A stretch of 64,000 nt of DNA, from positions 31,849 to 95,848 of the IMG/VR virus record IMGVR_UViG_3300032308_001684; one strand, given 5' to 3'. The translations under genes were made by a program, and so were the position numbers. The notes beneath the pieces are model-generated. The model was not told the origin of the DNA. It saw only the letters and a program-made list of their open reading frames with translations, and made no database searches. Origin of the DNA: a virus. Below, piece by piece: positions 10,811 through 26,020 of the stretch (within the stretch, counting starts at the first letter, position 1; each line of letters starts with the position of its first letter).

Positions 10811-10819
10811 TCTATACTC

Positions 10820-11173: not shown

Positions 11174-11179
11174 GCAAGT

Positions 11180-11208: not shown

Positions 11209-11213
11209 CCGTT

Positions 11214-11381
11214 TTATCGGCCGCGTCCGGTGACTTTTTTAACAGGTTTTCCTGTGACCACAGGCACGGGTCGTTTGGTCTTTGATTTGCCATCTTCTTT
11301 GGCATCCGACTTGGTGTCAGGATGTGCCGCGGCATGTTTTTTCTCCAGCGCGGCCTTTAGAGTGTCTGTTAATTTGCTCAT
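11214..11381 (-). CDS. small basic hypothetical protein (55 aa)
   Basis: MSKLTDTLKAALEKK...GRGR; ATGA coupling with the upstream gene. Confidence 0.55.
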   Translation of the reverse strand: MSKLTDTLKAALEKKHAAAHPDTKSDAKEDGKSKTKRPVPVVTGKPVKKVTGRGR

Positions 11382-11812: not shown

Positions 11813-11843
11813 AATATGTGTATATATCTCTTTTGTTGAAAAT

Positions 11844-12071
11844 CTATGATTTACGAGATTTTTTATCAACGTATTGGCTCTTGTAGAGATAGTCGCGGCC
11901 AATATGACCTTGTTCAACTTCTCTAATGGCCTTGACCACGGTGGTGTCATCTGTTGTGATATGAGGAGCATAGCCGTTGGACAACTCACGAGCTCGACGA
12001 CTAGCGATCAACACTAGATCATAACGATTACCTACTTGTTCTACTGCTTTTTCTGATGTGATTCTTGCCAT
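11844..12071 (-). CDS. rpoZ: RNA polymerase omega subunit homolog
   Basis: MARITSEKAVEQVGNRYDLVLIASRRARELSNG...AIREVEQG. Confidence 0.9.
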   Translation of the reverse strand: MARITSEKAVEQVGNRYDLVLIASRRARELSNGYAPHITTDDTTVVKAIREVEQGHIGRDYLYKSQYVDKKSRKS

Positions 12072-12094
12072 GCTATTCTCCTTGGTTATTAAAA

Positions 12095-12445
12095 TGCTCT
12101 GCGACCCTCGGCGGTATAAAAATTAGCGACCTGGTTGGATTTTGTATCTACCTTCCACCCATCGGCTTCCGGTCCCTCAGTAGGTCAATCAAAGGCTAAA
12201 ATTTACCCGCTTCCCGACGGGGCCCGTTCTCGCATTGCCAGCGGCCTTTCGGTTGGAAGACTACCACCCGTGGTTGCTACACCACTTCTTGTCATCTGGG
12301 TCAGACTAGCTGTTGCTACACAGCACGTAAAGTAGCTCAGGCGGCGCTTGAATCCACGGTAGCCCTACTCTTCATGGCCGGTCCTTGTACATGGTCGACA
12401 TTGACAAGTATTTCGGTGTTCCACTGTAGCTACTACCTGAGCAAA
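12095..12445 (-). ncRNA. candidate structured RNA(s) downstream of tRNA-Gly
   Basis: No credible ORF; closing helices GCTCAGG/CCTGAGC and TGACCC/GGGTCG; two hairpins with the same TGTAGCAA loop. Confidence 0.55.
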
Positions 12446-12447
12446 CT

Positions 12448-12521
12448 TGGAGCAGGGTAAGAGAATCGAACTCTCCGCATCAGCTTGGAAGGCTGAGGTA
12501 TTACCACTATACGAACCCTGC
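12448..12521 (-). tRNA. tRNA-Gly(TCC)
   Basis: Cloverleaf with CCA. Confidence 0.9.
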
Positions 12522-12527
12522 ACTGCT

Positions 12528-12601
12528 TGGTTGCGGAGGAGGGAATCGAACCCCCAACACCAGCTTATGAGACTGGTAAGATACCGTTTCTATACTCCGC
12601 G
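12528..12601 (-). tRNA. tRNA-Met(CAT), initiator-like
   Basis: C1:A72 mismatch; CAT anticodon. Confidence 0.85.
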
Positions 12602-12604
12602 ATA

Positions 12605-13189
12605 TTAGTTCCGCTTACGATTATGCGGAGTCTGTGTTGATGCTCAGTGACCTGCGATGCAGAGGACCAGCTGTTCAGGCCAATCATACAGAGCACAGAG
12701 TGTAGCCCAGACCGATTTGGGTTGCGAGAGGCTAGAAAACTACCGTATACTCGGATCGATCTAGCGTCGCTAAACATAGCAGTGAGTGGCCCGGGCTTGT
12801 GTAGCGCCTGGAATATAGTATGCATCACTGTGTGTCTATGTTGAAATAGTAAATGGCACCATCACGTGTTTAAGGTCCAGACATTTTGTCCAGGGTTCCA
12901 GCCTGGTGCCCAGTCCCCCTTGGCATGCTGATCTCGTAGCCAACGAGTACGTCTCAAATTGAGTTGCAGGAGCCCAGGGTGGTGATCTCCCCTGATGGTT
13001 GGGATATTGCTGGCGAAGCATTCTTTCGCTCACACCATTTACCATATGTAAGTGCTGAGAAATACCAATTTAGGCGTCCGGCGCTAACCGTGCCACAGCC
13101 GAGGTCTGTTGTGTCAGGACCCGTCCCCGGCCGGGAGGGCCCGAATAGTGTACACGTCTGCACACGATACCAGTATCAGCACTTACATA
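12605..13189 (-). ncRNA. candidate large or multi-domain structured RNA between tRNA-Glu and tRNA-fMet
   Basis: Three domains bounded by long helices, including a perfect 19-bp inverted repeat (13040-13058/13176-13194). Confidence 0.55.
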
Positions 13190-13264
13190 TGGTACACGGT
13201 AGGGGAATCGAACCCCTCTTCCTGCCGTGAAAGGGCAGTGTCCTAACCGATAGACGAACCGTGC
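13190..13264 (-). tRNA. tRNA-Glu(TTC)
   Basis: Cloverleaf with CCA. Confidence 0.9.
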
Positions 13265-13279
13265 ATCGAATCAATAGAT

Positions 13280-13327
13280 TGTTAATGAGCAAGTATGTAT
13301 TATAATATATTTTGAGTTGCGTGTCAA
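13280..13327 (-). promoter_or_regulatory. sigma70 promoter followed by a boxA-like site
   Basis: TTGACA-N17-TATAAT (13299-13327), then TGCTCATTAACA (13280-13291). Confidence 0.75.
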
Positions 13328-13342
13328 CCTGTAAATAGATTC

Positions 13343-14242
13343 ATGCACAAACTTTTTATAGCTACCTATTCTGGAGATCTTGCCCAGTTTGAACTGTGTT
13401 GCCATTGCATTAACAAAAACTGGAAAGGCAATCGATTCATCACAATATCCTGGGGACAACCAAATCCCTTGCAACAGGGTCAGATTTTTAATATAGAATC
13501 ACTCACTAGTCTGGTAACAGACATTTTTGACAGCGACTGGCAGATAGAAATAGTAGATGGCGCTGTGCCAGGAATGTCAGGCTACTGTGAACAACAGGTC
13601 AACAAAGTTAGATTTTCTATTGATCCTAGGTTTCAAGATACCATAGTGTTTGACTGTAAAGATTTTTTACTCAAACCTACGGGCATTGATTTTTTCAAAC
13701 CCAACGGTGTTTATCGTGTGGCATATTTTAAAAATGGCAACACATTTAAAGAACAATACATATCTGCATTGGACATCATTGATCAGGTACCCAACAATGT
13801 TCCTACACCTTTTAACACTACTCCTTGGATATGGGCCGGCGGAGAGCTTGAAAAGTTTTGGTCTTACATGCAATCAAGATTTGGCCCATATCAATCCTGG
13901 AGAACTTTTCCTGGTGCAACAGAATGGTCAAACTTTTATATCTTCAACTACTGCGACCCAGAGTCAATGATGCCCATGACTAGTGCCGAATACGAGTTTG
14001 TTAACTTTTGTGGTGTATGGCAAACTCTCAGCCTTGAAGATATACAGCAACAAATCGTTGATTTTGATGTCTGGGATTCTATGCGCATATGGAAACATAC
14101 CAGAAAAGATTCTACTCTCCAAAAGGTCGAGCTCACAGAGCAGGTACTTAAAAAATATGGAATAGAACAATCAGTGATTGATCAATGGAAACAACAACAT
14201 CTTGCTGAAATCTTGCAGTCTGATTATTCTAAAGAATTTTGA
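13343..14242 (+). CDS. hypothetical protein, possibly glycosyltransferase-like
   Basis: 299 aa reverse-oriented ORF; QQVNK...VFDCKDFLLKP; TAAATA just upstream. Confidence 0.6.
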   Translation: MHKLFIATYSGDLAQFELCCHCINKNWKGNRFITISWGQPNPLQQGQIFNIESLTSLVTDIFDSDWQIEIVDGAVPGMSGYCEQQVNKVRFSIDPRFQDTIVFDCKDFLLKPTGIDFFKPNGVYRVAYFKNGNTFKEQYISALDIIDQVPNNVPTPFNTTPWIWAGGELEKFWSYMQSRFGPYQSWRTFPGATEWSNFYIFNYCDPESMMPMTSAEYEFVNFCGVWQTLSLEDIQQQIVDFDVWDSMRIWKHTRKDSTLQKVELTEQVLKKYGIEQSVIDQWKQQHLAEILQSDYSKEF

Positions 14243-14578
14243 CCGGGTATTCTGTTACGAGGAACCCGGCAAACCCTAGGTTACCTTAGATCAGGCAGCC
14301 AATGCGTAAACTTCATCGTTTGCGTTTACTTTGATTTGCTTCTACGACCAGGTTACCCCAATCCTACGGGTTCTGCTTTCCCGTGTTGCCGTCTTTTCTA
14401 GCTCGCCATGTCGAAACCGGTCGAGCCCATCATAAAAAGACATGTATGCAAACAAACGCAATCAACAGTATGACTACTATAGTGTACGATGTGTTAACCA
14501 TATATCTCCTTATGGTGGACCCGGGGAGAATCGAACTCCCGTCCACAGCGCCTTCAAATTGAAGGATATACAACAATT
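14243..14578 (-). ncRNA. ssrA: circularly permuted (two-piece) tmRNA
   Basis: Acceptor piece ending GGGTCCACCA (14513) precedes the coding piece starting GGGCTCGAC (14428); G3-U70 pair; tag ANDEVYALAA* at 14291-14323. Confidence 0.9.
14430..14501 (-). CDS. 23-aa hydrophobic micropeptide in the tmRNA intervening segment
   Basis: TAAGGAG RBS, MVNTSYTIVVILLIAFVCIHVFL*. Confidence 0.5.
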   Translation of the reverse strand: MVNTSYTIVVILLIAFVCIHVFL

Positions 14579-14703
14579 CTTTCACGAGACTATCAGGACT
14601 TGAAGGCCCTCGCGTGGCCTAGGGACTCACACCCTATCAACATTCCAGCAGATAAATCAGCGCCACTGGGTGTATACTCCTGCTAGTTGTTTACTTATCA
14701 TCA

Positions 14704-14777
14704 TGGTGGAGGATGAGAGAATCGAACTCTCAATCTCGGCTTGCAAAGCCGATGTTATCCCATTTAACTAATCCCCC
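14704..14777 (-). tRNA. tRNA-Ala(TGC)
   Basis: Cloverleaf, G3-U70, CCA. Confidence 0.9.
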
Positions 14778-14989
14778 AAAGAAAAAACCTGAGTCATCCC
14801 CAGGTTTCTTCGTACTTCTTCATGGCCAGTTGCCTGGCCAACCACAACCTAAACTTTACATAATCACTGAGTTCAACGTCAACTGAATTATGTATTACTT
14901 CGGGTCTACGGTATCCTACATGTAGGTAATCATCTCCTTCATATACATACTCGCAATCATCGATTGTAAGTACAATGATGTGAGCAGGA

Positions 14990-15181
14990 TTACTTTTTAG
15001 GAGCGTCGGCTTTTTTGTCGTCTTTCTTAGCGTCGCTTTTGGTAGCGTCAGCGGCCTTCTTTTCAGCAGGCTTAGCAGGTGCTGCCGCGGCTGGCTTGGC
15101 TTCTTCTTTCTTGGCAGCAGGTGCCTGTGCGAAAGCGGATACAGCGAACAATGATGCGATTAGTGTAGCTACGAGTTTCAT
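14990..15181 (-). CDS. small secreted Ala/Lys/Pro-rich protein
   Basis: Signal peptide ending SAFA; AAGGAG RBS. Confidence 0.75.
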   Translation of the reverse strand: MKLVATLIASLFAVSAFAQAPAAKKEEAKPAAAAPAKPAEKKAADATKSDAKKDDKKADAPKK

Positions 15182-15278
15182 AAAAGTCTCCTTTTGGTTA
15201 TGAAATGTAGAGAATCAACCTCTACACTATAATAACGCCTGTGTTGACATCTACGTTGACACATTTGGCAAATATTTT

Positions 15279-15353
15279 TGGTACCCAAGGGTGGGAACGA
15301 TCCACCGACCCTCGCCTTATCAAGACGATGCTCTACCACTGAGCTACTTGGGC
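15279..15353 (-). tRNA. tRNA-Ile(GAT)
   Basis: Cloverleaf with CCA; atypical T-loop. Confidence 0.85.
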
Positions 15354-15359
15354 ATGTCA

Positions 15360-15436
15360 TGGCCGGCCCTGAGAGATTTGAACTCCCAACTTCCAGTTTC
15401 GAAGACTGGCACTCTATCCAATTGAGTTAAGGACCG
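15360..15436 (-). tRNA. tRNA-Arg(TCG)
   Basis: Cloverleaf with CCA. Confidence 0.9.
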
Positions 15437-15441
15437 ATGAT

Positions 15442-15516
15442 TGGTCCGGCCTGCAGGAATCGAACCCACATTCACGGTGTAGAAGACCGCTGTATTATCC
15501 ATTATACTAAGGCCGG
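15442..15516 (-). tRNA. tRNA-Arg(TCT)
   Basis: Cloverleaf with CCA. Confidence 0.9.
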
Positions 15517-15521
15517 ATATT

Positions 15522-15596
15522 TGGTGGTAATGGTAAGAGTCGAACTTACACTGAACACCGTATGAAGGTGGAGCACTACCATTATGCTACATTACC
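15522..15596 (-). tRNA. tRNA-Met(CAT), probably elongator
   Basis: Cloverleaf with CCA, paired 1:72. Confidence 0.8.
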
Positions 15597-16311
15597 AAAA
15601 AATATGTTCGCGGATGTATTGAGCGTAGGCCACATGAGCCGGACGTAGAAAATGTCCCCCGGGTGCTCTAGCAAAATTACGATCCATAGCAAAATTACAA
15701 AAATCTACATTGCCCACAGGCCTGAATATGTTGTCGTTCCAGTTAAAATCTATCACTGCTTGGAAACTGTCTATGTTGATAACCGATATCGATCGATCCA
15801 GGGCTAATTTGTTCAAGGCCAGGATGTTTTTTATTTTGTTGATACGTCCGCGGTGATCGTGTCCTTCAAACATGATCCATTCACGTCCGTATCTCTCATA
15901 ACGTTCGCGATTCTTTATTAGTGGGCCTATGTTGATGCCTTGCTGTAAAACAGGATTTCCCACACGAGCATGACTGATTCCATCGCCGTAATTGATGGGT
16001 ATCCAGTATTGATGTTCTTCGTGCCATACTTCGCCACGATCACAACCAGTCCAGCAGGCTATCACGATGTCTTGATCTGTAAGACCGTCAATCTGTTCCA
16101 ACAACACACGGAACATAGCATCGTTGCTACCGCCCGATATAGCATGATTTATAGACTCGTAGCCCAGTGCATCGGCCAGTAATACAGGATAACTGTTTTT
16201 GGCGCCATATTCAACCTGCATGACAGGATGCTGGATATTGTTACTGGGTTCAGACCATATCTCAGCACCTGTGGCATGACTGCATCCTAGTATAATCGCT
16301 TTGTTCATCAT
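15592..16311 (-). CDS. SGNH-hydrolase-like hypothetical protein
   Basis: GCSH...GGSND...WT...GH; paralogs at 37683 and 39618. Confidence 0.55.
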   Translation of the reverse strand: MMNKAIILGCSHATGAEIWSEPSNNIQHPVMQVEYGAKNSYPVLLADALGYESINHAISGGSNDAMFRVLLEQIDGLTDQDIVIACWTGCDRGEVWHEEHQYWIPINYGDGISHARVGNPVLQQGINIGPLIKNRERYERYGREWIMFEGHDHRGRINKIKNILALNKLALDRSISVINIDSFQAVIDFNWNDNIFRPVGNVDFCNFAMDRNFARAPGGHFLRPAHVAYAQYIREHIFW

Positions 16312-16323
16312 GATACTTACCAA

Positions 16324-16399
16324 TGGTAGGACGTGCGGGATTCGAACCCACCACCAATAGATTAAAAGTCTACTGCTCTACCCAATGAGCTAACGTCCC
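16324..16399 (-). tRNA. tRNA-Lys(TTT)
   Basis: Cloverleaf with CCA. Confidence 0.9.
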
Positions 16400-16405
16400 G
16401 ATGTC

Positions 16406-16479
16406 TGGCAGAGGGTATAGGAATCGAACCTATAATAACGGAATCAAAATCCGTGGTTATACCATTTAACTAACCCCCA
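16406..16479 (-). tRNA. tRNA-Gln(TTG)
   Basis: Cloverleaf with CCA. Confidence 0.88.
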
Positions 16480-16487
16480 ACTGTGAT

Positions 16488-16563
16488 TGGTGCCGTCCCC
16501 TGGGATCGAACCAGGTTCCTCGGTGCTTCAAACCGGTGCTATGACCACATCAGCTAAAACGGC
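16488..16563 (-). tRNA. tRNA-Phe(GAA)
   Basis: Cloverleaf with CCA. Confidence 0.88.
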
Positions 16564-16565
16564 AT

Positions 16566-16639
16566 TGGTACCTCGTGACAGAATCGAACTGCCGCAACCG
16601 CCGTGTAAAAGCGGAGTTCTACCATTAAACTAACGAGGC
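16566..16639 (-). tRNA. tRNA-Val(TAC)
   Basis: Cloverleaf with CCA. Confidence 0.9.
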
Positions 16640-16712
16640 AAAAAAGAAAACCCAGACGCAGTTTGCCGACATCAACGAGAGATCTATAACCGGAGGTCTG
16701 GGCCATAATACT

Positions 16713-16787
16713 TGGAGCAGGTAGTCGGGGTCGAACCGACGGCATTCTCGTTGGCAACGAGACATTCTACCACTGAATTATACCTGC
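16713..16787 (-). tRNA. tRNA-Gly(GCC)
   Basis: Cloverleaf with CCA. Confidence 0.9.
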
Positions 16788-16790
16788 ATA

Positions 16791-16872
16791 TGGTACCCCT
16801 GCCCGGATTCGAACCGGGAAACATAGTCACTCCTTTTGAGAGAGCCGCCTTTTCCAATTTGGCCACAGGGGC
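16791..16872 (-). tRNA. tRNA-Leu(CAA)
   Basis: Class II cloverleaf with CCA. Confidence 0.85.
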
Positions 16873-16880
16873 AATAAACT

Positions 16881-16957
16881 TGGTCGGAGTACAAGGATTC
16901 GAACCTTGGACCCCCTGGTCCCAAACCAGGTGCGCTACCAGGCTGCGCCACACTCCG
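16881..16957 (-). tRNA. tRNA-Pro(TGG)
   Basis: Cloverleaf with CCA. Confidence 0.92.
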
Positions 16958-16963
16958 AATAAC

Positions 16964-17049
16964 TGGTACGACTGGCCGGACTCGAACCGGCACGCCATTA
17001 AAGACGACAGATTTTAAGTCTGTTGCGGCTACCATTACGCCACAGTCGC
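16964..17049 (-). tRNA. tRNA-Leu(TAA)
   Basis: Class II cloverleaf with CCA. Confidence 0.9.
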
Positions 17050-17056
17050 AAACATT

Positions 17057-17139
17057 TGGTGCCCCAGGTCGGACTCGAACCGACACGCACTAGGCACTGG
17101 CTTCTAAGACCAGCGTGGCTACCATTACACCACCGGGGC
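17057..17139 (-). tRNA. tRNA-Leu(TAG)
   Basis: Class II cloverleaf with CCA. Confidence 0.9.
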
Positions 17140-17148
17140 AAAATTACA

Positions 17149-17224
17149 TGGGGAGAAGTATGGGAATCGAACCCATGCTAACGGAATCACAATCCGTGGT
17201 GCTGACCGCTACACTAACGACTCC
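17149..17224 (-). tRNA. tRNA-His(GTG)
   Basis: Cloverleaf, encoded G-1, CCA. Confidence 0.88.
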
Positions 17225-17230
17225 ATTGAT

Positions 17231-17320
17231 TGGCGGAGAGACTGGGACTTGAACCCAGAAAGCGGCTTTCACCACTCGACGGATTAGCAATCCGCTCCAA
17301 TACCATTATGGGACCTCTCC
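17231..17320 (-). tRNA. tRNA-Ser(GCT)
   Basis: Class II cloverleaf with CCA. Confidence 0.9.
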
Positions 17321-17325
17321 ATGTT

Positions 17326-17543
17326 TGGTGTAGGCTACGTTTCCACATCGCCCCTACTTGAGTTGACTTCTCTGTCACTGTGTTTTATTCTCTGCCTAGT
17401 TACAGTTCTAGTCAGCGGTTCGGACTCCCTTATCTTCTATCTTACTGTAGAAAGACAGATGGGCACTCTTCTTAACGGGTCACCGCCCCCGACCCCTCTA
17501 ACGACGGGCCACCGGTACAGATCACGTTCTGTACTGACGGGAT
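17326..17543 (-). ncRNA. candidate pseudoknotted RNA ending in ACCA
   Basis: Six hairpins, complementary loops TACAGT/ACTGTA, terminal GTAGG/CCTAC-ACCA. Confidence 0.55.
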
Positions 17544-17631
17544 TGGCGGAAGCGGTGAGATTCGAACTCACGGTACCTTTCGATACGCTGGTTTTCAAGA
17601 CCAGAGCCATAGACCACTCGACCACACTTCC
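17544..17631 (-). tRNA. tRNA-Ser(TGA)
   Basis: Class II cloverleaf with CCA. Confidence 0.9.
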
Positions 17632-17636
17632 TTACA

Positions 17637-17714
17637 TGGAGCAACAGGTAGGATTCGAACCTACGACTTTACGGGTTTGCAATCCGTTGCATTTGACCAC
17701 TCTGCCACTGTTGC
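17637..17714 (-). tRNA. tRNA-Cys(GCA)
   Basis: Cloverleaf, U73, CCA. Confidence 0.88.
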
Positions 17715-17720
17715 GTTGTT

Positions 17721-17797
17721 TGGCGACCCGGGAAGGATTTGAACCTCCGACATTTGGTTTTGGAGACCAACGTTCTGCCAGACTGAACTACCGAGCC
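17721..17797 (-). tRNA. tRNA-Trp(CCA)
   Basis: Cloverleaf with CCA. Confidence 0.88.
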
Positions 17798-17803
17798 ATT
17801 GTT

Positions 17804-17895
17804 TGGTACCCCCAGCGGGAGTCGAACCCACATGAACCAATTATCTGTTGCTTACGGGATATAAATCCGCCGTTTTACCATTAAACTATAGGGGC
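17804..17895 (-). tRNA. atypical tRNA-Ile(TAT) with long variable region
   Basis: Acceptor, D and T arms normal; TAT anticodon; about 22-nt variable region. Confidence 0.7.
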
Positions 17896-17901
17896 TATAT
17901 T

Positions 17902-17978
17902 TGGCTCCTCAGGGTGGGCTCGAACCACCGACACCTTGATTAACAGTCAAGTGCTTCTACCGACTGAGCTACTGAGGA
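17902..17978 (-). tRNA. tRNA-Asn(GTT)
   Basis: Cloverleaf with CCA. Confidence 0.9.
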
Positions 17979-17985
17979 ATAAACT

Positions 17986-18060
17986 TGGCGGTCCCAAGGG
18001 GAATCGAACCCCTGCCGACGGCGTGACAAGCCGCTATACTTACCGCTATACTATGGGACC
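17986..18060 (-). tRNA. tRNA-Asp(GTC)
   Basis: Cloverleaf with CCA. Confidence 0.9.
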
Positions 18061-18066
18061 AAGAAC

Positions 18067-18150
18067 TGGTGGAGACGGATGGATTCGAACCACCGTGCTG
18101 TTAAGAACAGATTTACAGTCTGCCGCAATCGACCACTCTGCCACATCTCC
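18067..18150 (-). tRNA. tRNA-Tyr(GTA)
   Basis: Class II cloverleaf with CCA. Confidence 0.9.
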
Positions 18151-18345
18151 AGATTTTTAACACACTGTCGCCAGTGTGTGTATCGAAGCACACTACTCAT
18201 CTGCTGACGCAATTTGATTGTTCGGCAATGTGCTTCGATACTCTGTGATTTTTCACACTACAAGAAGTGCTCCATCCCACAGGCCGCCCGTTCGTCCATG
18301 TTTAGAGTGCAGACTGGGACCTCGTTTCCCTTAACACTTTTGCTA

Positions 18346-18519
18346 TCAATTTACACTAAACGTTGGCGCTTTGGCTAACGATTCGCGATATAGTCTAGCA
18401 CGTTCAAACTTATCTTGAATAAGTTTTTGAAGCTGTTCTTGAGAGATTTCTCCAAAAGCAGTTTCATAAGCCTGTTCAACGATGCGTTCGTTTAATTTTT
18501 CGTAATCTATCTTTTCCAT
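18346..18519 (-). CDS. 57-aa hypothetical protein, first gene after the attenuator
   Basis: MEKIDYEKLNERIVEQAYETAFG...; AAGGA RBS. Confidence 0.65.
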   Translation of the reverse strand: MEKIDYEKLNERIVEQAYETAFGEISQEQLQKLIQDKFERARLYRESLAKAPTFSVN

Positions 18520-18532
18520 TTTTCCTTTTTGT

Positions 18533-18571
18533 ATAAAAACAAAGCCCCGGAGTGTTTAGTTCCGGGGCTCT
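18533..18571 (-). terminator. intrinsic terminator of the leader attenuator
   Basis: AGAGCCCCGGA-9 nt loop-TCCGGGGCTTT then GTTTTT. Confidence 0.85.
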
Positions 18572-18612
18572 GTGTAGAATAAGTTACTATCTGACTTCTA
18601 CTCAGAACCCCC
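18564..18612 (-). promoter_or_regulatory. antiterminator helix
   Basis: GGGGTTCTGAGTAGAA pairs with TTCTACACAGAGCCCC (15 of 16 positions) and sequesters the terminator 5' arm. Confidence 0.8.
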
Positions 18613-18714
18613 GACCCCGATCGCATCATTACGTAGGCAGGTAGGATGCCACAAGAGACTTGTTGGCTCCATCTGTTTAAATGATATTGAATAGGATCTT
18701 TGTGTGTTCATCAT
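18598..18714 (-). CDS. attenuator leader peptide containing all 20 amino acids
   Basis: MMNTQRSYSISFKQMEPTSLLWHPTCLRNDAIGVGGSE*. Confidence 0.75.
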   Translation of the reverse strand: MMNTQRSYSISFKQMEPTSLLWHPTCLRNDAIGVGGSE

Positions 18715-18721
18715 AGTATCT

Positions 18722-18750
18722 ATTGTATGCGTTTATTTATTCCTGGTCAA
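18722..18750 (-). promoter_or_regulatory. tRNA operon promoter
   Basis: TTGACC-N17-TACAAT, ATG 7 nt downstream; TAAATA inside the spacer. Confidence 0.8.
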
Positions 18751-18770
18751 CCCCTGGTTTACCTTTTTAC

Positions 18771-18806
18771 AACAAAAAACCCTACACAAGGTAGGGTTTT
18801 TGTTTT
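18771..18806. terminator. bidirectional intrinsic terminator
   Basis: AACAAAAAACCCTAC-ACAAG-GTAGGGTTTTTGTTTT. Confidence 0.8.
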
Positions 18807-18819
18807 GCTTGTCTACCTA

Positions 18820-19779
18820 TCAAGCCTTGCGTTCAATTGCCTCAACCAGTCCTGGTGTGAACGTGTCACGGAACTGATCATAGACACCTGACAATGCTAC
18901 CTTAGCGGCGTCGCGTTGTTCTTGTGTCCACTTGACAATGTTGGCACCTTCTTCTTGAACTAGACGCTGTTCGGCACGAGCACCATCACGGATGGTCTCA
19001 GCACGTTCTTCACGTCCTGCAAGAATAGCGGCTTGCTTGATCACGGCCTGAACTTCAGGGCTCATTGTGGCCCAGAACTTGTCACCAATGATCATTGATG
19101 TGAGGAACAAGCTGTGGCCTGTGTCAATCACTGACTTGGTAACTTCATTCTGACGCAATGGGTACATACGTGGGTAGTTGGTTTCGCCACCTTCGGCTTC
19201 GCCGTCGACCACTACTTGGCGCAGGTCTTCTACTTCAGCAACAACAGGCTTCATGCCCAGTGCAGAAATAGTTGCTTGTGCAACAGGGTTACGGTTTGAA
19301 CGAACTGCTGTACCAGCAAGCTCTTCTAAAGTGCTAACTTTCTTGTTAGCAATCATCTGACGGAAACCGCCAGAGTATGTGAAACTCAATCCACGTACAT
19401 TAGACTTGTCAGTGAGTTTGTTGAGAAGAGTCTCTCCAACTTCACCTTCTAGCACACGGGTAGCATGCTCATGATCTTTAAACAAGAAAGGAAGATCAAA
19501 TACCAAGAAGTCTTGTTCATACTTCTCAGCAAGCCATGTGGTGTACATCTGGCTCATTTCAATCTTGCCTGCTTCCATGAGATCTAGCAAATCATGCTTG
19601 GTGACCACAACACCATCGTTATAACGCTGGCTGTACTCTGAAAGAGTCATGATTTCAACTTCGATCTTGTGCTCGCTTTGTTGTTCGTTTACACGACGCT
19701 CAAAGTCTTCAGCGGCACGAAGGAAAAGGTTTAAAGGCTCATGGGCGATAACCCAACGAATCTTAGTAGTTTTGCTCAT
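18820..19779 (-). CDS. dctP: TRAP transporter substrate-binding protein, DctP-like, no evident signal peptide
   Basis: VFDLPFLFKDHEH, GFRQ, conserved Arg (AVRS), GGETN. Confidence 0.8.
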   Translation of the reverse strand: MSKTTKIRWVIAHEPLNLFLRAAEDFERRVNEQQSEHKIEVEIMTLSEYSQRYNDGVVVTKHDLLDLMEAGKIEMSQMYTTWLAEKYEQDFLVFDLPFLFKDHEHATRVLEGEVGETLLNKLTDKSNVRGLSFTYSGGFRQMIANKKVSTLEELAGTAVRSNRNPVAQATISALGMKPVVAEVEDLRQVVVDGEAEGGETNYPRMYPLRQNEVTKSVIDTGHSLFLTSMIIGDKFWATMSPEVQAVIKQAAILAGREERAETIRDGARAEQRLVQEEGANIVKWTQEQRDAAKVALSGVYDQFRDTFTPGLVEAIERKA

Positions 19780-19922
19780 TTTTTATATCCAAATTTGGTA
19801 GTTTAAATGTGCTCGCGATTGCTCGCTACGGTTCGGCGTTCTAGGCATAACATGCTAGTAAATGGGTTTTACCCAAGGCGTCGTTGTAACCGGCGTCGAT
19901 CACCTGACCGGCGCTGCCATTA

Positions 19923-20822
19923 TTATTTAGCCAGTTTCACACCTTGGCTCAGGCGTTTCCACAGGGTAACTTGTGAATCAAACCAACGCTGTGTGGCGGT
20001 AGCGTCAAGATTGCTGGGCTCGCAGTAGTCCACAGCATAAGCTCGTTGTACGCTGGCAGCTTTGGCAGCTTCAACAACCATGCCACGAAGTTCATTGTAC
20101 TGTGTGTCGGGCATGGATCGGGGTACTTGTAAGCTGTGCATGTTGACCACTTCGCCTACTCCAGCAAAGCCCTGACTTTCTAAAGTAGGAACTCCACGCA
20201 CAGTTCGACGTCCAGAGATGCCCAGGGCATGTAGATCGCCTTTGTCTAAGAATCCTTCAACTTCTCCCAGGAATGCCACACTGAGTTCAATGTTGCCTGA
20301 GATGACATCCATGCTGGCTTCACGTGTGCCTTTGTAGGGCACTGGCTGTGCATTGGGGAAACGCTTGACAATCTCCATGGCCATCAAGTGCGATGTAGCA
20401 CCCAAACCAGAGATACCAATGTTGATGGGCTTTGACTTGTCAACTTCCTGCCAGCTACGATATTTTTTGCTCACAATGACCATGGGTGCGGCACACTGTG
20501 TCATCAATGGCCGGAAGTCTGCCACTGAGTGACTTTCTTCAGGATAAAAGTTTGGGCGAACAAAGAAGGCAGTAGATGCACTCAATACAGTGTTAGGGGT
20601 GGTTGCTACGTGTTTGGCACCAATGGTTGCTCCTGCTCCTGGTTTGTTTTCCAAGATGAATGTGTATTTCTTTTGATTCTTGTTGAGCTCTTCAACAAGA
20701 CTACGGCTGTATTGTGCTTGTGTGTCGCCCATGCCAAAGGGCCATATGATAGATACGGTCTGTTGTGCTTGAGACGAAAGCGATGCCAATGTGACGGCAC
20801 TGGCGATTAAAAACTTTTTCAT
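19923..20822 (-). CDS. TctC/Bug periplasmic binding protein
   Basis: Signal peptide, ENKPGAGATIG, VPYKG, VPTLES. Confidence 0.85.
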   Translation of the reverse strand: MKKFLIASAVTLASLSSQAQQTVSIIWPFGMGDTQAQYSRSLVEELNKNQKKYTFILENKPGAGATIGAKHVATTPNTVLSASTAFFVRPNFYPEESHSVADFRPLMTQCAAPMVIVSKKYRSWQEVDKSKPINIGISGLGATSHLMAMEIVKRFPNAQPVPYKGTREASMDVISGNIELSVAFLGEVEGFLDKGDLHALGISGRRTVRGVPTLESQGFAGVGEVVNMHSLQVPRSMPDTQYNELRGMVVEAAKAASVQRAYAVDYCEPSNLDATATQRWFDSQVTLWKRLSQGVKLAK

Positions 20823-22003
20823 TTGAGTAATCCTTGTATGATGTCGGTATTTACATAGTCTGTGGGGCCCAGGTCATAGAACTTGTCCATGAACCCAACA
20901 AAGCCCACAGCACGACCCTGTTCGTAGGTAAAGAACTTAGAGTCAATGGTGTTGACCATGTGGGCTAATCCTGCTTCCCATACTTGATAGAAGCGAGTGT
21001 CTTTGAAGTTCTTAAAGAACCACCAAGTCATTTCTGAGTAGAAGTTATTGGTTGACTTTGTGGTTTGCCAAGTTGTTGGATCGTAGTCAGGATAGATCAG
21101 CGGCTTGGCCAGTTGTTCGTAGGCACCTCGCTGTGCCACTGAGTGATTAGGCCAGCGTACCAAGAACTGCAAATGCTTGGCATGGTCTGTCATAAACCAG
21201 TTACGTATGGTATGTGCTTGTTTGATAATGAGTTCTGGCAAATCAGCTTGCCAGTAAAAATACTCTGTGGTAATGTTGTTGTAAGGACCACGTTGATTTT
21301 GACTGTGGTTGGCCTGGATGTCAAGAAAGTACATGTACCAACGACCGTCTTTGATACAGACCTTGGGCTTGTCAACACCATAAAGAACACAGATTTGTTT
21401 GCCTGATTCTGCCAACAGTTTGTGACTGCTCATGCCCAACGGATCGTGTTTGAATGTGTGTTCAGGATGTAAGTAATCTTTGGCGTTGTTGACCCAGGAC
21501 TCATCACCTTTATAATCAAGTATGTTTTGACTAAAGTCATGCATGGTGATCTTGATGTTAGGGTGTGTGACCGCTAGTTTTTGTAATATGGGCTTGGCCG
21601 CAAAGTGCCACTCTGACAAAGTGTTCTCAGCTTTCATATTTTTGGCATCAGGGCCAAGATTTTTATCGCCCTGTGCTGGATAGCGAAACACCACTTCGTC
21701 TAGGTGTATGTTGTTGTTGATAAAACTGTAGAGCACTGTAGCAGAGTCTGAACCACCTGAGAACTCTAGTCGAATGTAATCGTATCGATCTCTCAACTGT
21801 TGCGCTCGCATGCGATAGAGTTCTCGCAAGCTCAGTTGTGGTTCCTTGGTTGTGTCCATACGAGAAAAAACTTCTCGGTTAAAGTTCCAAGTTGGAAACT
21901 GGCCAGTGGCCGTGGCCTCTAGCAGAGCTTGAGGTTTGGAATAGAAGTTTTTACCATTGACTGTGTAAAAACCAAGTTTGGGATTGTTTTCGAGAAGTTC
22001 CAT
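20819..22003 (-). CDS. PP-loop protein
   Basis: EFSGGSDS; paralog of 2775-3986. Confidence 0.7.
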   Translation of the reverse strand: MELLENNPKLGFYTVNGKNFYSKPQALLEATATGQFPTWNFNREVFSRMDTTKEPQLSLRELYRMRAQQLRDRYDYIRLEFSGGSDSATVLYSFINNNIHLDEVVFRYPAQGDKNLGPDAKNMKAENTLSEWHFAAKPILQKLAVTHPNIKITMHDFSQNILDYKGDESWVNNAKDYLHPEHTFKHDPLGMSSHKLLAESGKQICVLYGVDKPKVCIKDGRWYMYFLDIQANHSQNQRGPYNNITTEYFYWQADLPELIIKQAHTIRNWFMTDHAKHLQFLVRWPNHSVAQRGAYEQLAKPLIYPDYDPTTWQTTKSTNNFYSEMTWWFFKNFKDTRFYQVWEAGLAHMVNTIDSKFFTYEQGRAVGFVGFMDKFYDLGPTDYVNTDIIQGLLK

Positions 22004-22014
22004 GAGCGGAGTAT

Positions 22015-22800
22015 TTAAAGATCAAAGCCCGTGGAGGAAACATTTAGCACTTGATTTGTTTTGGACATGTCGGCACAGGTATATCTTTGATAGCTGTTTC
22101 TAAGCTGTTCAGGCAATGGTATTTCTTCAATGGGCACATCAAACTGTTCAGCAATTTCATAAAAGCTCTTGGTCTTTCCTGTGCCTACATTAAACACACC
22201 ACTGGCTGACACTTTTAAAAACTTTAGATGCATTTCAACAACTTCCTGCACAGGAATAAAATCTCGGCAAGACTCTCTACTGCCTTCAAACACCTGTATG
22301 CGGCCAGTCTCTCGAGCTTGTTTGGCAAACTGAGAAAATGGACTGGCCTGCGAGCCTTTATGGTCTTCGCCAGTACCATACACATTAAAGTATCGAAATC
22401 CTTGTACTGTGTTCTTGCCTTGATTTCTAGCATGATGCCGTTCAAACAGATATTTAGACCAAGCATAGGGAGTTCTTGGATCTGCTGGAGCATCTTCTGT
22501 AAACACAGTACCAAGCCCATACACGCTGGCACTGCTGGAATACTGCATGTTTACCTCATAGAATCTGCAGGCATCAAACAGCTGGCGACTAAAGTCATAG
22601 TTCTGTGTGAGTATTTTGTCAATGTCTCGCTCTGTGGTACTGCTGATGGCACCCATGTGTATGACCCAATCTTGTTCAGCCACACTGGGCATGTTTCCAT
22701 CATTCCAATCATAGGTTGAAACAGAATGGCCTTCGCGCTCAAGAGCCTGGAGCATGTTACTACCAATAAATCCTCTGTGTCCTGTAAGCAATATTTTCAT
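22015..22800 (-). CDS. hldD: ADP-L-glycero-D-manno-heptose 6-epimerase-like
   Basis: GHRGFIG, GAISSTTE, YAWSK, RYFNVYG..EDHKG, YQRYTCAD. Confidence 0.8.
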   Translation of the reverse strand: MKILLTGHRGFIGSNMLQALEREGHSVSTYDWNDGNMPSVAEQDWVIHMGAISSTTERDIDKILTQNYDFSRQLFDACRFYEVNMQYSSSASVYGLGTVFTEDAPADPRTPYAWSKYLFERHHARNQGKNTVQGFRYFNVYGTGEDHKGSQASPFSQFAKQARETGRIQVFEGSRESCRDFIPVQEVVEMHLKFLKVSASGVFNVGTGKTKSFYEIAEQFDVPIEEIPLPEQLRNSYQRYTCADMSKTNQVLNVSSTGFDL

Positions 22801-23156
22801 TGTTGACTGTCCCCTGGCACGATTCGATAGTTGTCTTCAACAGAATCAGCAGTGCTGATCTCAAGTATGGTACCAGCTTCTAGACAAGTAACACGATGTG
22901 GCACCATGGGATCATTGTGATGTGTGGCACCTTGTTGTAATATTTTTTTAGTGATTGTAGCATTGGCAGTATTGATAGTTTCTACTTCAAACTTTCCGCT
23001 TTGAACATACCATGTTTCCATCTTATCTCTATGGAAGTGCATGCTGAACTGACCGCCTGTTTCAAAGTTTAGAAACTTACCGCAATAGCAATCGTTAGTA
23101 GCCCAGATATATTCAGAACCCCATCCTTTTGGCACTAGACCTTTTAACTGTGTCAT
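22797..23156 (-). CDS. cupin-domain sugar isomerase-like protein
   Basis: KGWG.E, SMHFH..K.E, EIST.D. Confidence 0.7.
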   Translation of the reverse strand: MTQLKGLVPKGWGSEYIWATNDCYCGKFLNFETGGQFSMHFHRDKMETWYVQSGKFEVETINTANATITKKILQQGATHHNDPMVPHRVTCLEAGTILEISTADSVEDNYRIVPGDSQQ

Positions 23157-23917
23157 TGTATCTCCTCCAAGGTAGGAGCATACACTCCTAGATGTTGTAC
23201 TGTGATGCCCGCGGCGCGATTAGCAAACTCAATGGCTGTCTGCATTTCTCCAGTGATTAAAAACTGGTAGCACAATGCCGCTAAAAAAGTATCTCCTGCA
23301 CCAGTGACATCTGTTATCTCTACTCGCTGTGCAGAACACTGCCAACCATTCCATTCAGCACCTTGATCACCATGTGTGATCACTAGCCATTGAGAATCGG
23401 GCAAAGTTTTTAACAAACTATGTTCAAGTTCGTTGATCTTGATGTAACAACCATTGAGCCGTGCTAGATCAGTCTTTTTGGTATCAATAAAGATTGGAAT
23501 GGTAACTGCGTTGATCAACTCTTCAATCAGGTCGTAGCTGATCGTACCTTTGTTGTAGTCACTGATCACAATGGCATCGTAAACATTGGGGATCTCAGAA
23601 TCAAACTCTATGGGATTACTGATTGCATCTTGGTCAATGCGCACAATATGTTGTTTGGTACGTTGATCAATCAGTCGAGTTTTCTTGCTGATTTGGCCGT
23701 GCAAAAAATCCACATCGCATCCTAATGTTTTTAGATTTTTGCTGACATTATTGGCCATGCCGCCCAGTGTGATTTCGTTGATTGGCTCAAACACAGGCAC
23801 AGGAGCTTCAGGGCTAATACGATGAACTGCTCCATAGATATAGGTATCTATGCAAGCATCACCGATTAATAATATCTTGAATTTTTTTAGTGGTTGAGTA
23901 TTCATTGAGTCGATCAA
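23153..23917 (-). CDS. heptose-7-phosphate kinase (RfaE/HldE domain I, PfkB family)
   Basis: RISPEAPVPV, SDYNKG, DVTGAGDTF. Confidence 0.85.
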   Translation of the reverse strand: MIDSMNTQPLKKFKILLIGDACIDTYIYGAVHRISPEAPVPVFEPINEITLGGMANNVSKNLKTLGCDVDFLHGQISKKTRLIDQRTKQHIVRIDQDAISNPIEFDSEIPNVYDAIVISDYNKGTISYDLIEELINAVTIPIFIDTKKTDLARLNGCYIKINELEHSLLKTLPDSQWLVITHGDQGAEWNGWQCSAQRVEITDVTGAGDTFLAALCYQFLITGEMQTAIEFANRAAGITVQHLGVYAPTLEEIQ

Positions 23918-24251
23918 AAAATATCAGTTGTTTGGCGTGAGTCTTGCCGATTACAGATTGGTCTTGATAATCACTGCCTTTGACCAAAATATCTGCACTG
24001 CTGATGATATCTATCAAGTCTTGGTCAGTGTCGAATATTTTTACTTCATCCACTGCCCGAAGATTCCTCAGCATTTCTTGACGCTCATACTCATTGTTGA
24101 CAGGCCTAGTTGGCCCTTTGAGCTCTTTGACTCTACGGTCAGAATCTATAGCTACCAAAAGATGATCTCCCAAACTCCGGGCATGATTTAGCAAAGCCAA
24201 ATGCCCGGAGTGCAGGATGTCAAATGTTCCATTGACTACTACTTGTTTCAT
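23859..24251 (-). CDS. heptose-1-phosphate adenylyltransferase (RfaE/HldE domain II)
   Basis: NGTFDILHSGH, LKGPTRP, VKGSDY, YSTT. Confidence 0.85.
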   Translation of the reverse strand: MKQVVVNGTFDILHSGHLALLNHARSLGDHLLVAIDSDRRVKELKGPTRPVNNEYERQEMLRNLRAVDEVKIFDTDQDLIDIISSADILVKGSDYQDQSVIGKTHAKQLIFFDRLNEYSTTKKIQDIINR

Positions 24252-24763
24252 TAGCTGTTAAGCACACGAGCCACAGAAGTAATCACAGACGCAATGCGAC
24301 CAATGTCACGAAGTTGCTCTACAGAGTAACCTTCTTTTCTCAAGGTTTCGTAGTGCGCTTTTACGCAGAAGTGGCACTTGCCAACGATACTGGCGGCTAG
24401 ACTGTAGCTCTCAAAACGAGCCTTGGTTGTTCCACCATGGGAGCTGATAGCATTCATGCGTAACTGCGCTGGCAAACCTGTGAGTCGCTCGTCCTCGGCC
24501 ATTTCAACGTAGGGATACCATACATTGTTCATGGCCATCAAACTGGCCGCAGTCAAGGCCGCGTCTCTTTCAGTGGCATCTTCAATGCCTGACTGTATAA
24601 ATGTAACGAGTTTTCCATTGCCTGTTGCCATAGCGGCTGCGAGAGCACAGCCATTGGCTTCAACAGGATCAAGAGTGCTACGATTAACAACGCTGTCAAG
24701 ATTGAGACGTGTGTCTTTTGCATATTCAGGCAATGCCTCTTTGATTTGATCTACCCATGACAT
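24251..24763 (-). CDS. ahpD: alkyl hydroperoxide reductase AhpD
   Basis: LPEYAKD.RLNL, MAMNNVWY, CHFCVKAH. Confidence 0.92.
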   Translation of the reverse strand: MSWVDQIKEALPEYAKDTRLNLDSVVNRSTLDPVEANGCALAAAMATGNGKLVTFIQSGIEDATERDAALTAASLMAMNNVWYPYVEMAEDERLTGLPAQLRMNAISSHGGTTKARFESYSLAASIVGKCHFCVKAHYETLRKEGYSVEQLRDIGRIASVITSVARVLNS

Positions 24764-25317
24764 TACAATGTCTCTCCGCCCACTGCACGGTTACAAGCAC
24801 ACTTCTCGCCAGTTTGCAATGCGTCTAATACACGCAATGTTTCTTCTGGGCTACGACCCACGTTCAAGTTATTCACAGTAACGTGTTGGATAACGTTGTC
24901 TGGATCAACGATAAATGTAGCACGAAGTGCGGCACCTGCTGGAGCATAGAACACGCCTAGTTGTTCAATCAAACTTACACCACCGCGTTCTTCGCCGGGC
25001 TGATGACGTGCAGTATCTGCAAATTGAATGTGACGGATCTTGCCCAAATCTTCATGACTACGTTGCCATGCCAGTTTGCAGAACTCATTGTCTGTGCTAC
25101 CTGTCAGCAATACTGCATCACGGTCAGCAAAGTCCTGGAACAGCTTATCGTATGCAACAATCTCAGTTGGACATACAAATGTAAAGTCCTTTGGATAGTA
25201 AACGATTACTTTCCACTTGCCAGCAAATGATTCTTCAGTGATGGTAAAGAAATCATCTTTACCTGGGTTAACGCCAGTGATGGCAAACTTTTCGATTTTA
25301 TTTCCTACTGTTTTCAT
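24763..25317 (-). CDS. ahpC: peroxiredoxin AhpC
   Basis: YPKDFTFVCPTE, VGRS..E.LR.LDALQ. Confidence 0.95.
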   Translation of the reverse strand: MKTVGNKIEKFAITGVNPGKDDFFTITEESFAGKWKVIVYYPKDFTFVCPTEIVAYDKLFQDFADRDAVLLTGSTDNEFCKLAWQRSHEDLGKIRHIQFADTARHQPGEERGGVSLIEQLGVFYAPAGAALRATFIVDPDNVIQHVTVNNLNVGRSPEETLRVLDALQTGEKCACNRAVGGETL

Positions 25318-25372
25318 AACTTCTCCTTAGTGTTAAAAATTTGAAAGCTCTCAGTGTTTATACTGATGCTTT

Positions 25373-25458
25373 ATTGTAATAGTATATACCTACAAAATCA
25401 ACGATTCTAATAGATTTTTTCTGAATATTTTTTAATGTCAATCATAGAAAAAATCAAT
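25373..25458 (-). promoter_or_regulatory. ahpC promoter with upstream OxyR-like site
   Basis: TTGATT-N17-TACAAT; ATAG-N7-CTGA and TAAT-N7-ATAG-N7-CAAT at 25410-25458. Confidence 0.5.
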
Positions 25459-26020
25459 AATCTTCGTCGGGATCAGTGACCACAGCCCAGCCTAGTTTTT
25501 GCAAATCTGCTTGTATTTCGTCGGTGACTACACTTTCTGGGACATATCCGTTTGGGTAGGCTATGTTTAATTCTGGATCGTAATTGTTATCGTTTCGAAT
25601 GCCACTACAGTACCAGTCAATGTAGTCACCTTCGCCACGCATGTCAGCAATGATCCCACCAGCATGGCGCCATGAGCAAGCATACTTCTGATCTTTGAGT
25701 ACAGGCCAAACATCCTGACTCTGAAAATCATTGTTACACAAGGCCGCATAGAGATTTTGAGCATAGCTCTCATTGGCACGAACCTTCTCTACCATCCAAT
25801 CAGTACTACGAAGATCGTATTCAAGATTGTTCTTTTGCCACTCAGGATCAGCTTCTTGCTTTTGAGATTCTTCGCTCCAGGAATCATACCAGTGGATCAT
25901 GGCCTTGACATCAGGATCGTCTAGACTGCGACCTTCTTTGAGTTGTCTCTCAATGTAACCGTCACGCTGAAACGTGTTTCTTTGAGGACTTGCGCTGAGT
26001 TTTGGAAGTTTTTGACTCAT
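25454..26020 (-). CDS. hypothetical phage protein
   Basis: 188 aa; YAQNLYAALCNN, GDYIDWYCSG. Confidence 0.75.
   Translation of the reverse strand: MSQKLPKLSASPQRNTFQRDGYIERQLKEGRSLDDPDVKAMIHWYDSWSEESQKQEADPEWQKNNLEYDLRSTDWMVEKVRANESYAQNLYAALCNNDFQSQDVWPVLKDQKYACSWRHAGGIIADMRGEGDYIDWYCSGIRNDNNYDPELNIAYPNGYVPESVVTDEIQADLQKLGWAVVTDPDEDY

Follow-up and report, generated by a model that had tools for sequence, protein, structure and literature searches.

A leader peptide with all 20 amino acids in a probable attenuator upstream of the tRNA array of a giant lake phage

What decides when a phage that carries transfer RNA (tRNA) genes for all 20 amino acids transcribes them? The timing of phage tRNA expression, set against host shut-off and tRNA-cleaving defences, is an open question (PMC11555353, PMC11464382). 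Here, we analyse a 64,000-nucleotide stretch of IMG/VR record IMGVR_UViG_3300032308_001684 (positions 31,849 to 95,848 of that record; hereafter the window), whose minus strand carries 28 tRNA genes covering 20 amino acids and a transfer-messenger RNA (tmRNA). Between a dctP-like phage gene (PF03480) and the first tRNA lies a short open reading frame (ORF), the leader, that encodes a peptide with every amino acid. We consider it likely that this locus is a ribosome-mediated, leader-peptide transcription attenuator controlling an operon that consists of a gene for a 57-residue protein and the tRNA array. The source record is 95.8 kb long and its estimated completeness of about 28% corresponds to a genome of roughly 300 kb; the phage is an uncultured giant lake phage.

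For fifty years, leader-peptide attenuation has been the textbook device for sensing one amino acid, at most three. The data described below support a pan-amino-acid, and probably pan-tRNA, form of it that gates phage tRNA genes: the device appears to have been generalized to the whole pool of charged tRNAs and applied to the tRNA genes themselves. Full-text literature searches found no published all-amino-acid leader and no published attenuator of tRNA genes.

Results

Organization of the leader locus

Read along the minus strand, the dctP stop codon is followed by a hairpin with a T-run, a promoter, the leader ORF, a long hairpin, a terminator, the ORF for the 57-residue protein, a spacer and tRNA-Tyr. 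The parts of the proposed switch and the gene behind it are as follows.

18722 to 18750, minus strand: sigma-70-type promoter, TTGACC-N17-TACAAT
18598 to 18714, minus strand: leader ORF, 38 sense codons and a TAG stop codon (18598 to 18600)
18596 to 18611, minus strand: antiterminator 5′ strand, GGGGTTCTGAGTAGAA, spanning the leader's last four sense codons and its stop
18564 to 18579, minus strand: antiterminator 3′ strand, TTCTACACAGAGCCCC, whose last 7 nucleotides are the start of the terminator 5′ arm
18533 to 18570, minus strand: intrinsic terminator, GAGCCCCGGA / TCCGGGGCTT and T-run, with a 10-bp G+C-rich stem and a 9-nucleotide loop
18346 to 18519, minus strand: ORF for the 57-residue protein, the first gene behind the putative attenuator, with a Shine-Dalgarno sequence (AAGGA) and an ATG start

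Because the antiterminator 3′ strand shares 7 nucleotides with the terminator 5′ arm, the two structures are mutually exclusive. Folded alone, the antiterminator hairpin (18611-18596 with 18579-18564) has an energy of −21.9 kcal/mol, and the 10-bp core of the window's terminator, the stem of which reaches 13 bp when extended into the U-tract, has one of −18.4 kcal/mol.

A sequence-only reading of the window had drawn attention to this arrangement, and its anatomical description holds. The promoter is there, with the leader ATG beginning 7 nucleotides past the −10 hexamer and no Shine-Dalgarno sequence, a spacing from which the leader mRNA is predicted to be leaderless. The leader (18714-18598) has 20 amino acids and 32 distinct sense codons and samples AGA and CGT, TCN and AGT, TTG, CTA and CTC, and ATA and ATC. 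Its end pairs with the terminator-arm segment at 15 of 16 positions, one of the pairs being G-U, and the ORF for the 57-residue protein (18519-18346) and the tRNA array (from 18150) lie downstream.

Taken by itself, the amino-acid completeness of the window's leader is unusual, not decisive. All 20 amino acids occur in 0.37% of the stop-free 38-codon windows of the whole 64-kb stretch and in 3 of its 179 ORFs of 30-45 codons, and this last figure is what speaks for a chance ORF in an ordinary promoter-to-terminator spacer. The codon diversity that the sequence-only reading had also pointed out turned out to be within expectation for the peptide: 32 distinct codons compare with 29.5 ± 1.8 expected (P = 0.14).

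Conservation of the locus in freshwater relatives

Homologues were collected with the 57-residue protein, yielding 45 loci in IMG/VR and 80 in Joint Genome Institute (JGI) metagenome contigs, and removal of duplicates left 86 distinct upstream regions. All of the homologous loci are from freshwater and several are on contigs of 260-356 kb; searches of cultured phages (INPHARED) with the DNA and with the 57-residue protein found no relative. The homologous short ORF that the sequence-only reading had led us to expect at related loci is present in all 86, where promoter, short ORF, antiterminator and terminator, and the ORF for the 57-residue protein follow one another in the same order, the stop codon of the short ORF lying 40-140 nucleotides ahead of the next gene. 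A tRNA array stands behind the gene for the 57-residue protein in 31 of the 32 loci scanned (the exception is L022), beginning roughly 200-300 nucleotides, and up to about 900 nucleotides, behind it.

The leader frame is open in 86 of 86 loci and the other two frames over the same span in none. At least 10 of 12 consensus positions of the promoter are matched in every locus, the median being a perfect TTGACA-17-TATAAT. In 73 of the 86 loci the leader has a 5′ untranslated region (5′ UTR) of 20-67 nucleotides, and a Shine-Dalgarno-like tetramer is found in 68 of these 73. The remaining 13, which include the window, are of a leaderless type with the ATG 6-10 nucleotides past the −10 hexamer, and this explains why the window's leader has no Shine-Dalgarno sequence. 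As judged from the sequences of the 86 loci, the leader thus has the start signals and the selected open frame that characterize leader ORFs of the attenuator class. This comparison also places the locus far beyond chance: an accidental ORF is contradicted by the conservation of the ORF, of its completeness and of a competing helix over 86 loci, and we regard that explanation as exceedingly improbable.

Small shares of the region are contained in 16 metatranscriptome runs, four of which, all from freshwater, were examined. Contigs of relatives (88-95% alike) cover the leader, the gene for the 57-residue protein and the spacer, one of them reaching across the terminator, but such contigs show no ends, strand or level and may stem from DNA carry-over, and no conclusion is drawn from them.

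Selection for a complete amino-acid set

The 86 loci encode 75 distinct leader peptides of 34-51 amino acids. Of these, 65 contain the full set of 20 amino acids, five contain 19, four 18 and one 17. This completeness is kept in a peptide that is poorly conserved, as the sequence-only reading had anticipated: mean pairwise identity is 41% and the sole invariant residue is one Trp. The leader evolves much faster than the neighbouring 57-residue protein, in which mean column identity is 78%.

Independent draws from the leaders' own flattened composition, at the same lengths, are complete in 0.1-5% of cases. Since the leader sequences share ancestry, we also simulated their evolution along the maximum-likelihood peptide tree, starting from a complete root, under five settings with 400 runs each. 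A conservative null with column-specific residue pools left 12-18 of 75 tips complete, with a maximum of 63, and a null with global composition left 3-8. The 65 complete tips seen in nature were reached in 0 of 400 runs under every setting.

The way in which completeness is kept is equally informative. On average, 6.4 amino acids per leader peptide are present as a sole copy, and these sole copies wander. The sole Cys is spread over 13 alignment columns (Cys is absent from 3 of the 75 peptides), the sole His over 13, Tyr over 8, Phe over 9 and Lys over 9. Within one close pair residues have been swapped, L017 having Tyr beside the Trp and Asn before DR where L091 has Ser beside the Trp and Tyr before DR. 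Two loci, L047 and L048, are 94% identical to the window from the terminator 3′ arm through the gene for the 57-residue protein, yet their leaders, which belong to the other (long, 5′-UTR) class, have no detectable nucleotide similarity to that of the window and nevertheless contain all 20 amino acids. The sequences point to selection for the complete amino-acid set, and leader modules seem to be exchanged as cassettes. Completeness kept by wandering sole residues makes a clean, unusual signature for which other sequences could be searched.

Two side observations concern these sequences. The mosaic boundary at the terminator can be placed by aligning L047:1480-1749 and L048:1480-1749 with window positions 18543-18271. 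In three pairs of near-identical metagenomic variants, 1-2 substitutions apart, a sole-copy amino acid is dropped (L059 versus L080, Tyr and Glu; L086 versus L061, Cys; L046 versus L108, Lys). These losses are either mildly deleterious polymorphisms or assembly errors, and the pairs offer natural test cases for the completeness hypothesis.

Could the terminated leader RNA of about 180 nucleotides, or its peptide, be the product, as a trans-acting small RNA or a micropeptide, with the terminator merely ending the gene? A strong promoter, an efficient-looking terminator, hairpins conserved inside the ORF and the fixed Trp and DR(T/L)PE block would all suit such a product, and attenuator RNAs with second jobs are known, rnTrpL reportedly among them. 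A functional peptide, however, gives no reason for 20 amino acids, and this one is 41% identical, has a C-terminal frame that differs by clade and has been replaced wholesale beside 94%-identical genes. Drift, swaps and wholesale replacement with completeness kept argue for a device that needs one of everything and not for a functional micropeptide. We regard a dedicated RNA or peptide product as quite unlikely, although the leader RNA or peptide may have a second role beside attenuation.

Sampling of codon groups and tRNA species

Does the pattern extend from amino acids to codon groups? This was examined in 79 distinct leader coding sequences by redrawing synonymous codons from phage usage, a comparison that is uncorrected for shared ancestry. 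Of the 79 leaders, 65 have the complete set of six Leu, Ser and Arg codon boxes, against 27.8 expected, and 61 have these six together with both Ile classes, against 15.4, in line with the coverage of separately decoded groups that had been read from the window alone. The rare classes AGR and ATA are over-represented, occurring in 71 and 70 leaders where about 44 are expected for each, and the sole carriers of Leu, Ser, Arg and Ile codon classes move among 4-14 columns. In the window, 24 of the 26 distinct phage anticodons can read the leader under standard wobble, and 26 of 26 if U34 reads family boxes; 38-codon windows drawn from the genes of the phage itself (n = 2,114) average 17.3 and reach at most 25 (P about 0.001). 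These counts are suggestive of coverage of codon groups beyond that of amino acids.

A covarying terminator-antiterminator switch

The RNA was examined in 84 distinct leader-to-terminator sequences from the 86 loci. An intrinsic terminator, with −10.5 to −23 kcal/mol and a T-run, stands between the leader and the downstream genes in 84 of 84. The antiterminator was folded for each sequence alone, from the leader tail to the terminator loop with the terminator 3′ arm omitted, and in all 84 the pairing partner of the terminator 5′ arm lies within the last 3-28 nucleotides of the ORF (median 9 nucleotides paired). In the short class of leaders, to which the window belongs, the partner strand ends 3-5 nucleotides before the stop codon or contains it; in the long class it lies 15-28 nucleotides before the stop, which itself falls near the apex of the hairpin. 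Run on the raw MAFFT alignment of the 84 sequences, RNAalifold was uninformative because indels shift the terminator arms out of register, and per-sequence folding, a count over named structures and a sub-alignment of the long class were used instead.

Seven core antiterminator pairs covary (AU50/GC26/GU5, GC77/UA5, CG68/UA10). Double-change cells number 49; column shuffles gave 18.5 ± 2.9 (0/500), and the scores of slid controls were lower. Covariation is also seen in a second helix (GC41/UA14; GU27/AU26/GC13) and in a small hairpin within the leader ORF. A covarying alternative between terminator and antiterminator, which the sequence-only reading had proposed to look for in relatives, is thus a feature of the whole folded set. 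Two details bear on which structure is conserved. One C/U base of the shared strand forms G-C or A-U in the antiterminator and C-G or U-G, with an invariant G, in the terminator; as that G tolerates either base, the variation follows the antiterminator partner. The GGGTCC strand is read in different frames in different clades (GGG-TCC and AGG-GTC-C), which indicates that the strand is conserved as RNA and that the ORF merely runs through it. A plain terminator at the end of a small RNA gene, the explanation considered above, needs no covarying competitor helix formed by the ORF end and the terminator arm.

A model of ribosome position

To relate the ORF to the switch, the nucleotides from −15 to +12 relative to the A-site codon were kept unpaired to represent a ribosome, and the probability that the terminator stem forms at equilibrium was calculated for each stall position in the 84 sequences. 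With no ribosome, the modelled mean probability is 0.14 for the terminator and 0.87 for the antiterminator. With the A site at least 13 codons before the stop the mean terminator probability is predicted to be 0.13-0.38, and with a ribosome over the last 11 sense codons it rises to 0.85-1.0. The model therefore has the ORF end placed so that a terminating ribosome would mask the antiterminator 5′ strand, and stalls in the last 11 or so codons should terminate transcription. In 45 of 61 long-class leaders, 19 of the 20 amino-acid types fall inside the predicted read-through zone, at the border of which Glu stands, and the ribosome-masked tail shows a trend in the predicted direction (9.4 residues against 4.7 in permutations).

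These results also bear on a pyrBI-type coupling sensor, in which the presence or speed of the ribosome matters, the codons do not, and the complete set is incidental or otherwise used. A ribosome-free default of read-through, as modelled in most relatives, would suit it, as do leader codons that are single, without runs, and positional tests for a sensing zone that are weak. What such a sensor does not predict is selection for completeness (65 of 75 against 3-18 in the simulations, with sole residues over up to 13 columns), and the over-representation of AGR and ATA likewise speaks against it. We consider it unlikely.

The 57-residue protein, the spacer and the tRNA array

The flanking features of the locus are as follows.

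18771 to 18806, minus strand: hairpin with T-run directly 3′ of the dctP stop codon (a hairpin search lists 18775-18801)
18151 to 18345, minus strand: non-coding spacer of 195 nucleotides between the ORF for the 57-residue protein and tRNA-Tyr
16324 to 18150, minus strand: opening block of 18 tRNA genes in the array, tRNA-Tyr through tRNA-Lys

The 57-residue protein is predicted to fold as a hairpin of two helices; searches of Pfam, of PHROG and, with Foldseek, of the PDB gave no match. Across 107 of 126 related loci, identity over the first 115 or so nucleotides of the spacer (18231-18345) is 83-96%, higher than the conservation of the leader, and this stretch matches no Rfam family; the whole 195 nucleotides fold into long helices (−68.7 kcal/mol). 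Judged by these sequences, the spacer is possibly a conserved RNA element heading the tRNA array, such as a processing or antitermination signal. A metatranscriptome contig with a word depth of 386 overlaps 18248-18292.

A very conserved protein that is always adjacent to the switch, and a conserved structured spacer behind its ORF, are what one would look for if the switch were set by a protein or ligand, for example by the 57-residue product acting as an autoregulatory RNA binder, with no sensing by the ORF. Against this stand the frame that is open, with start signals, in 86 of 86 loci and the stop codon, which in every case falls within the antiterminator or adjoins it; searches with riboswitch and T-box models gave no match, and amino-acid completeness would be unexplained. 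Control of this kind is, in our view, very unlikely.

Upstream, the sequence-only reading had placed an insulating terminator at 18771-18806, and the hairpin is present there. From its sequence it is predicted to act like an intrinsic terminator in both directions and to shield the leader promoter from transcription arriving from upstream. Only the window phage and the near relative L113 have it, the other loci differing in upstream context. The dctP-like gene itself (18820-19779, minus strand) encodes a DctP-family solute-binding protein (PF03480, E = 3.5e-45), and the gene at 19923-20822 (minus strand) looks, by eye, like one for a Bug/TctC-type tripartite tricarboxylate binding protein. Both are unusual phage cargo.

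Downstream, the array runs on to 9418 with 9 further tRNAs and the tmRNA, and one extra tRNA-Met lies upstream of the leader locus at 26801-26877. A perfect TTGACA-17-TATAAT at 13299-13327 (minus strand) stands 35 nucleotides upstream of tRNA-Glu (13190-13264); at least some distal tRNAs probably have a promoter of their own, outside the control of the attenuator. The 92-nucleotide tRNA at 17804-17895 (minus strand), which has a long variable region and the anticodon TAT (Ile, AUA), is conserved across the phage group and found in many loci (for example L002:6812-6903 and L008:7690-7781), and the window adds three CAT tRNAs. The tmRNA (14200-14617, minus strand) is permuted (Rfam beta_tmRNA, 121.6 bits; tmRNA_permuted, 115.6 bits); in L010, L011, L015, L025 and L041 tmRNAs lie upstream of the leader and have different, longer tag peptides. 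At L037:5105-5173, inside the array of a relative, ARAGORN reports a tRNA with a four-base anticodon (ttga), a candidate for a tRNA of the frameshift type or else for a degenerate copy.

Discussion

The anatomy of the locus, its conservation, the selection for an open frame and a complete amino-acid set, and the covariation of the antiterminator are observed across the relatives and lead us to favour attenuation by a translating ribosome. We infer from them that the leader is translated and that the tRNAs are co-transcribed with the gene for the 57-residue protein. We envision a scenario in which host RNA polymerase starts at the strong sigma-70 promoter, in the window at or next to the AUG, and a ribosome translates the 38-codon leader. 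An unhindered ribosome at the last codons and stop would cover the antiterminator 5′ strand, the terminator would form and transcription would end about 180 nucleotides from its start. If the ribosome were absent or held earlier, the antiterminator would form first and sequester the terminator 5′ arm, and polymerase would read on into the gene for the 57-residue protein and the tRNA genes. This is the direction that the sequence-only reading had proposed, and the conserved ORF, its completeness, the covarying switch and the footprint model are consistent with it, so that the regulatory direction is, as far as a model can say, well motivated.

As the leader contains every amino acid and mostly every codon group for which there is a phage tRNA, almost any shortage of charged tRNA should raise read-through. 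The downstream genes are tRNAs for 20 amino acids, which most naturally suggests negative feedback acting on decoding capacity: the phage tRNAs made would restore decoding and so shut the operon down again. Host shut-off, a mismatch in codon usage and tRNA-cleaving defences, the last of which phage tRNAs are known to counter (PMC11555353, PMC11464382), are plausible triggers. More tentatively, and with doubt on our part, the leader may act at the level of tRNA species, with at least one codon per phage tRNA including AGR, AUA, UUR and AGY, and the array may be a self-limiting homeostat: where the host tRNA pool is mismatched, decaying or cleaved by nucleases, the array would be transcribed only until its products restored the decoding of phage-type codons. 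If true, a single element would monitor decoding as a whole and would give the phage an inbuilt response to anticodon-nuclease defences.

Several observations weigh against attenuation as set out here, or limit its reach. In the footprint model the window copy itself favours the terminator without a ribosome, with a probability of 0.98 (terminator-forced −58.6 kcal/mol, antiterminator-forced −54.5 kcal/mol), and some other short or leaderless-type copies also favour the terminator at equilibrium. The antiterminator is the minimum-energy fold of the window's nascent RNA only until the terminator 3′ arm is complete, and read-through in this copy would therefore rest on co-transcriptional kinetics or on stalls at codons 13-18 and 28-31. 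In general, 1-3 amino acids lie too near the switch for sensing, mostly Glu in the long class. The sequence-only reading had cautioned that Gly and Val might escape detection in the window; the caution was sound, but by the footprint model it should be widened, Ala31 as well as Gly33 and Val34 being too near the antiterminator strand for read-through. Positional enrichment of residues upstream of the masked tail is not significant per sequence, and the sequences are not independent; the codon-group result, too, rests on counts that are uncorrected for shared ancestry. Ten of the 75 leaders are without 1-3 amino acids, and since amino acids occur once or a few times, with no runs, sensitivity to mild starvation may be low. 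Finally, the Trp and the block coding for ..DR(T/L)PE are fixed in position, the block even at synonymous sites, which implies extra constraints, from RNA hairpins or the peptide, that an attenuator model does not explain; these are probably leader hairpins that pause polymerase.

If confirmed, the mechanism would show how giant phages time the expression of large tRNA sets and would be the first case of tRNA genes under translational-feedback attenuation. It would also offer synthetic biology a compact, portable reporter of translation health.

Among known systems, the closest published parallel in biology is offered by the trn operon of Anabaena sp. PCC 7120, a long tRNA array that is expressed at a low level and induced when elongation is impaired (PMC8421152; PMC10272220). 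The likeness lies in a supernumerary tRNA array induced by translational stress. The Anabaena array, however, is cellular, and a DNA-binding repressor, TrcR, controls it at the promoter; the account in PMC10272220 makes no mention of a leader peptide or of attenuation. T-box riboswitches are likewise cis-acting switches between terminator and antiterminator that report tRNA charging, but in a T-box the specifier codon and the T-box sequence directly bind a single uncharged tRNA, no ribosome being involved, whereas the conserved element of the phage locus is an ORF; the T-box model (RF00230) has no match on 18100-18830 even at E ≤ 10. With the pyrBI attenuator the phage element would share a dependence of read-through on how closely the ribosome trails polymerase, yet pyrBI senses UTP-dependent pausing of polymerase and makes no compositional demand on its leader peptide.

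The closest mechanistic relatives are the enterobacterial attenuators trpL, hisL, pheL, leuL, thrL (Thr and Ile) and ilvL (Leu, Val and Ile). Searches of 9000-27500 and 18100-18830 with Rfam models without the gathering cut-off gave only sub-threshold scores for Thr_leader (RF00506, 24.1/55 bits) and His_leader (RF00514, 18/49), and the Trp, Leu and Phe leader families do not score at the gathering threshold at the window locus. Similarity is instead one of design: a 5′ leader with a short ORF and an intrinsic terminator, an antiterminator overlapping the terminator 5′ arm and placed for blockage by a ribosome that finishes the leader, in-leader hairpins that possibly pause polymerase, and read-through upon slow decoding. 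The differences are as instructive. Clustered regulatory codons for the operon's own amino acids are not found in the phage leaders, which lack runs and use each amino acid usually once to three times, and these single codons give less leverage than the runs of the his and phe leaders. Most of the phage relatives have no anti-antiterminator, so that the untranslated state would be ON and not super-attenuated, and some copies are predicted to stand on leaderless mRNAs. Above all, this element belongs to a phage, and the genes it would control are those of tRNAs and not of biosynthetic enzymes.

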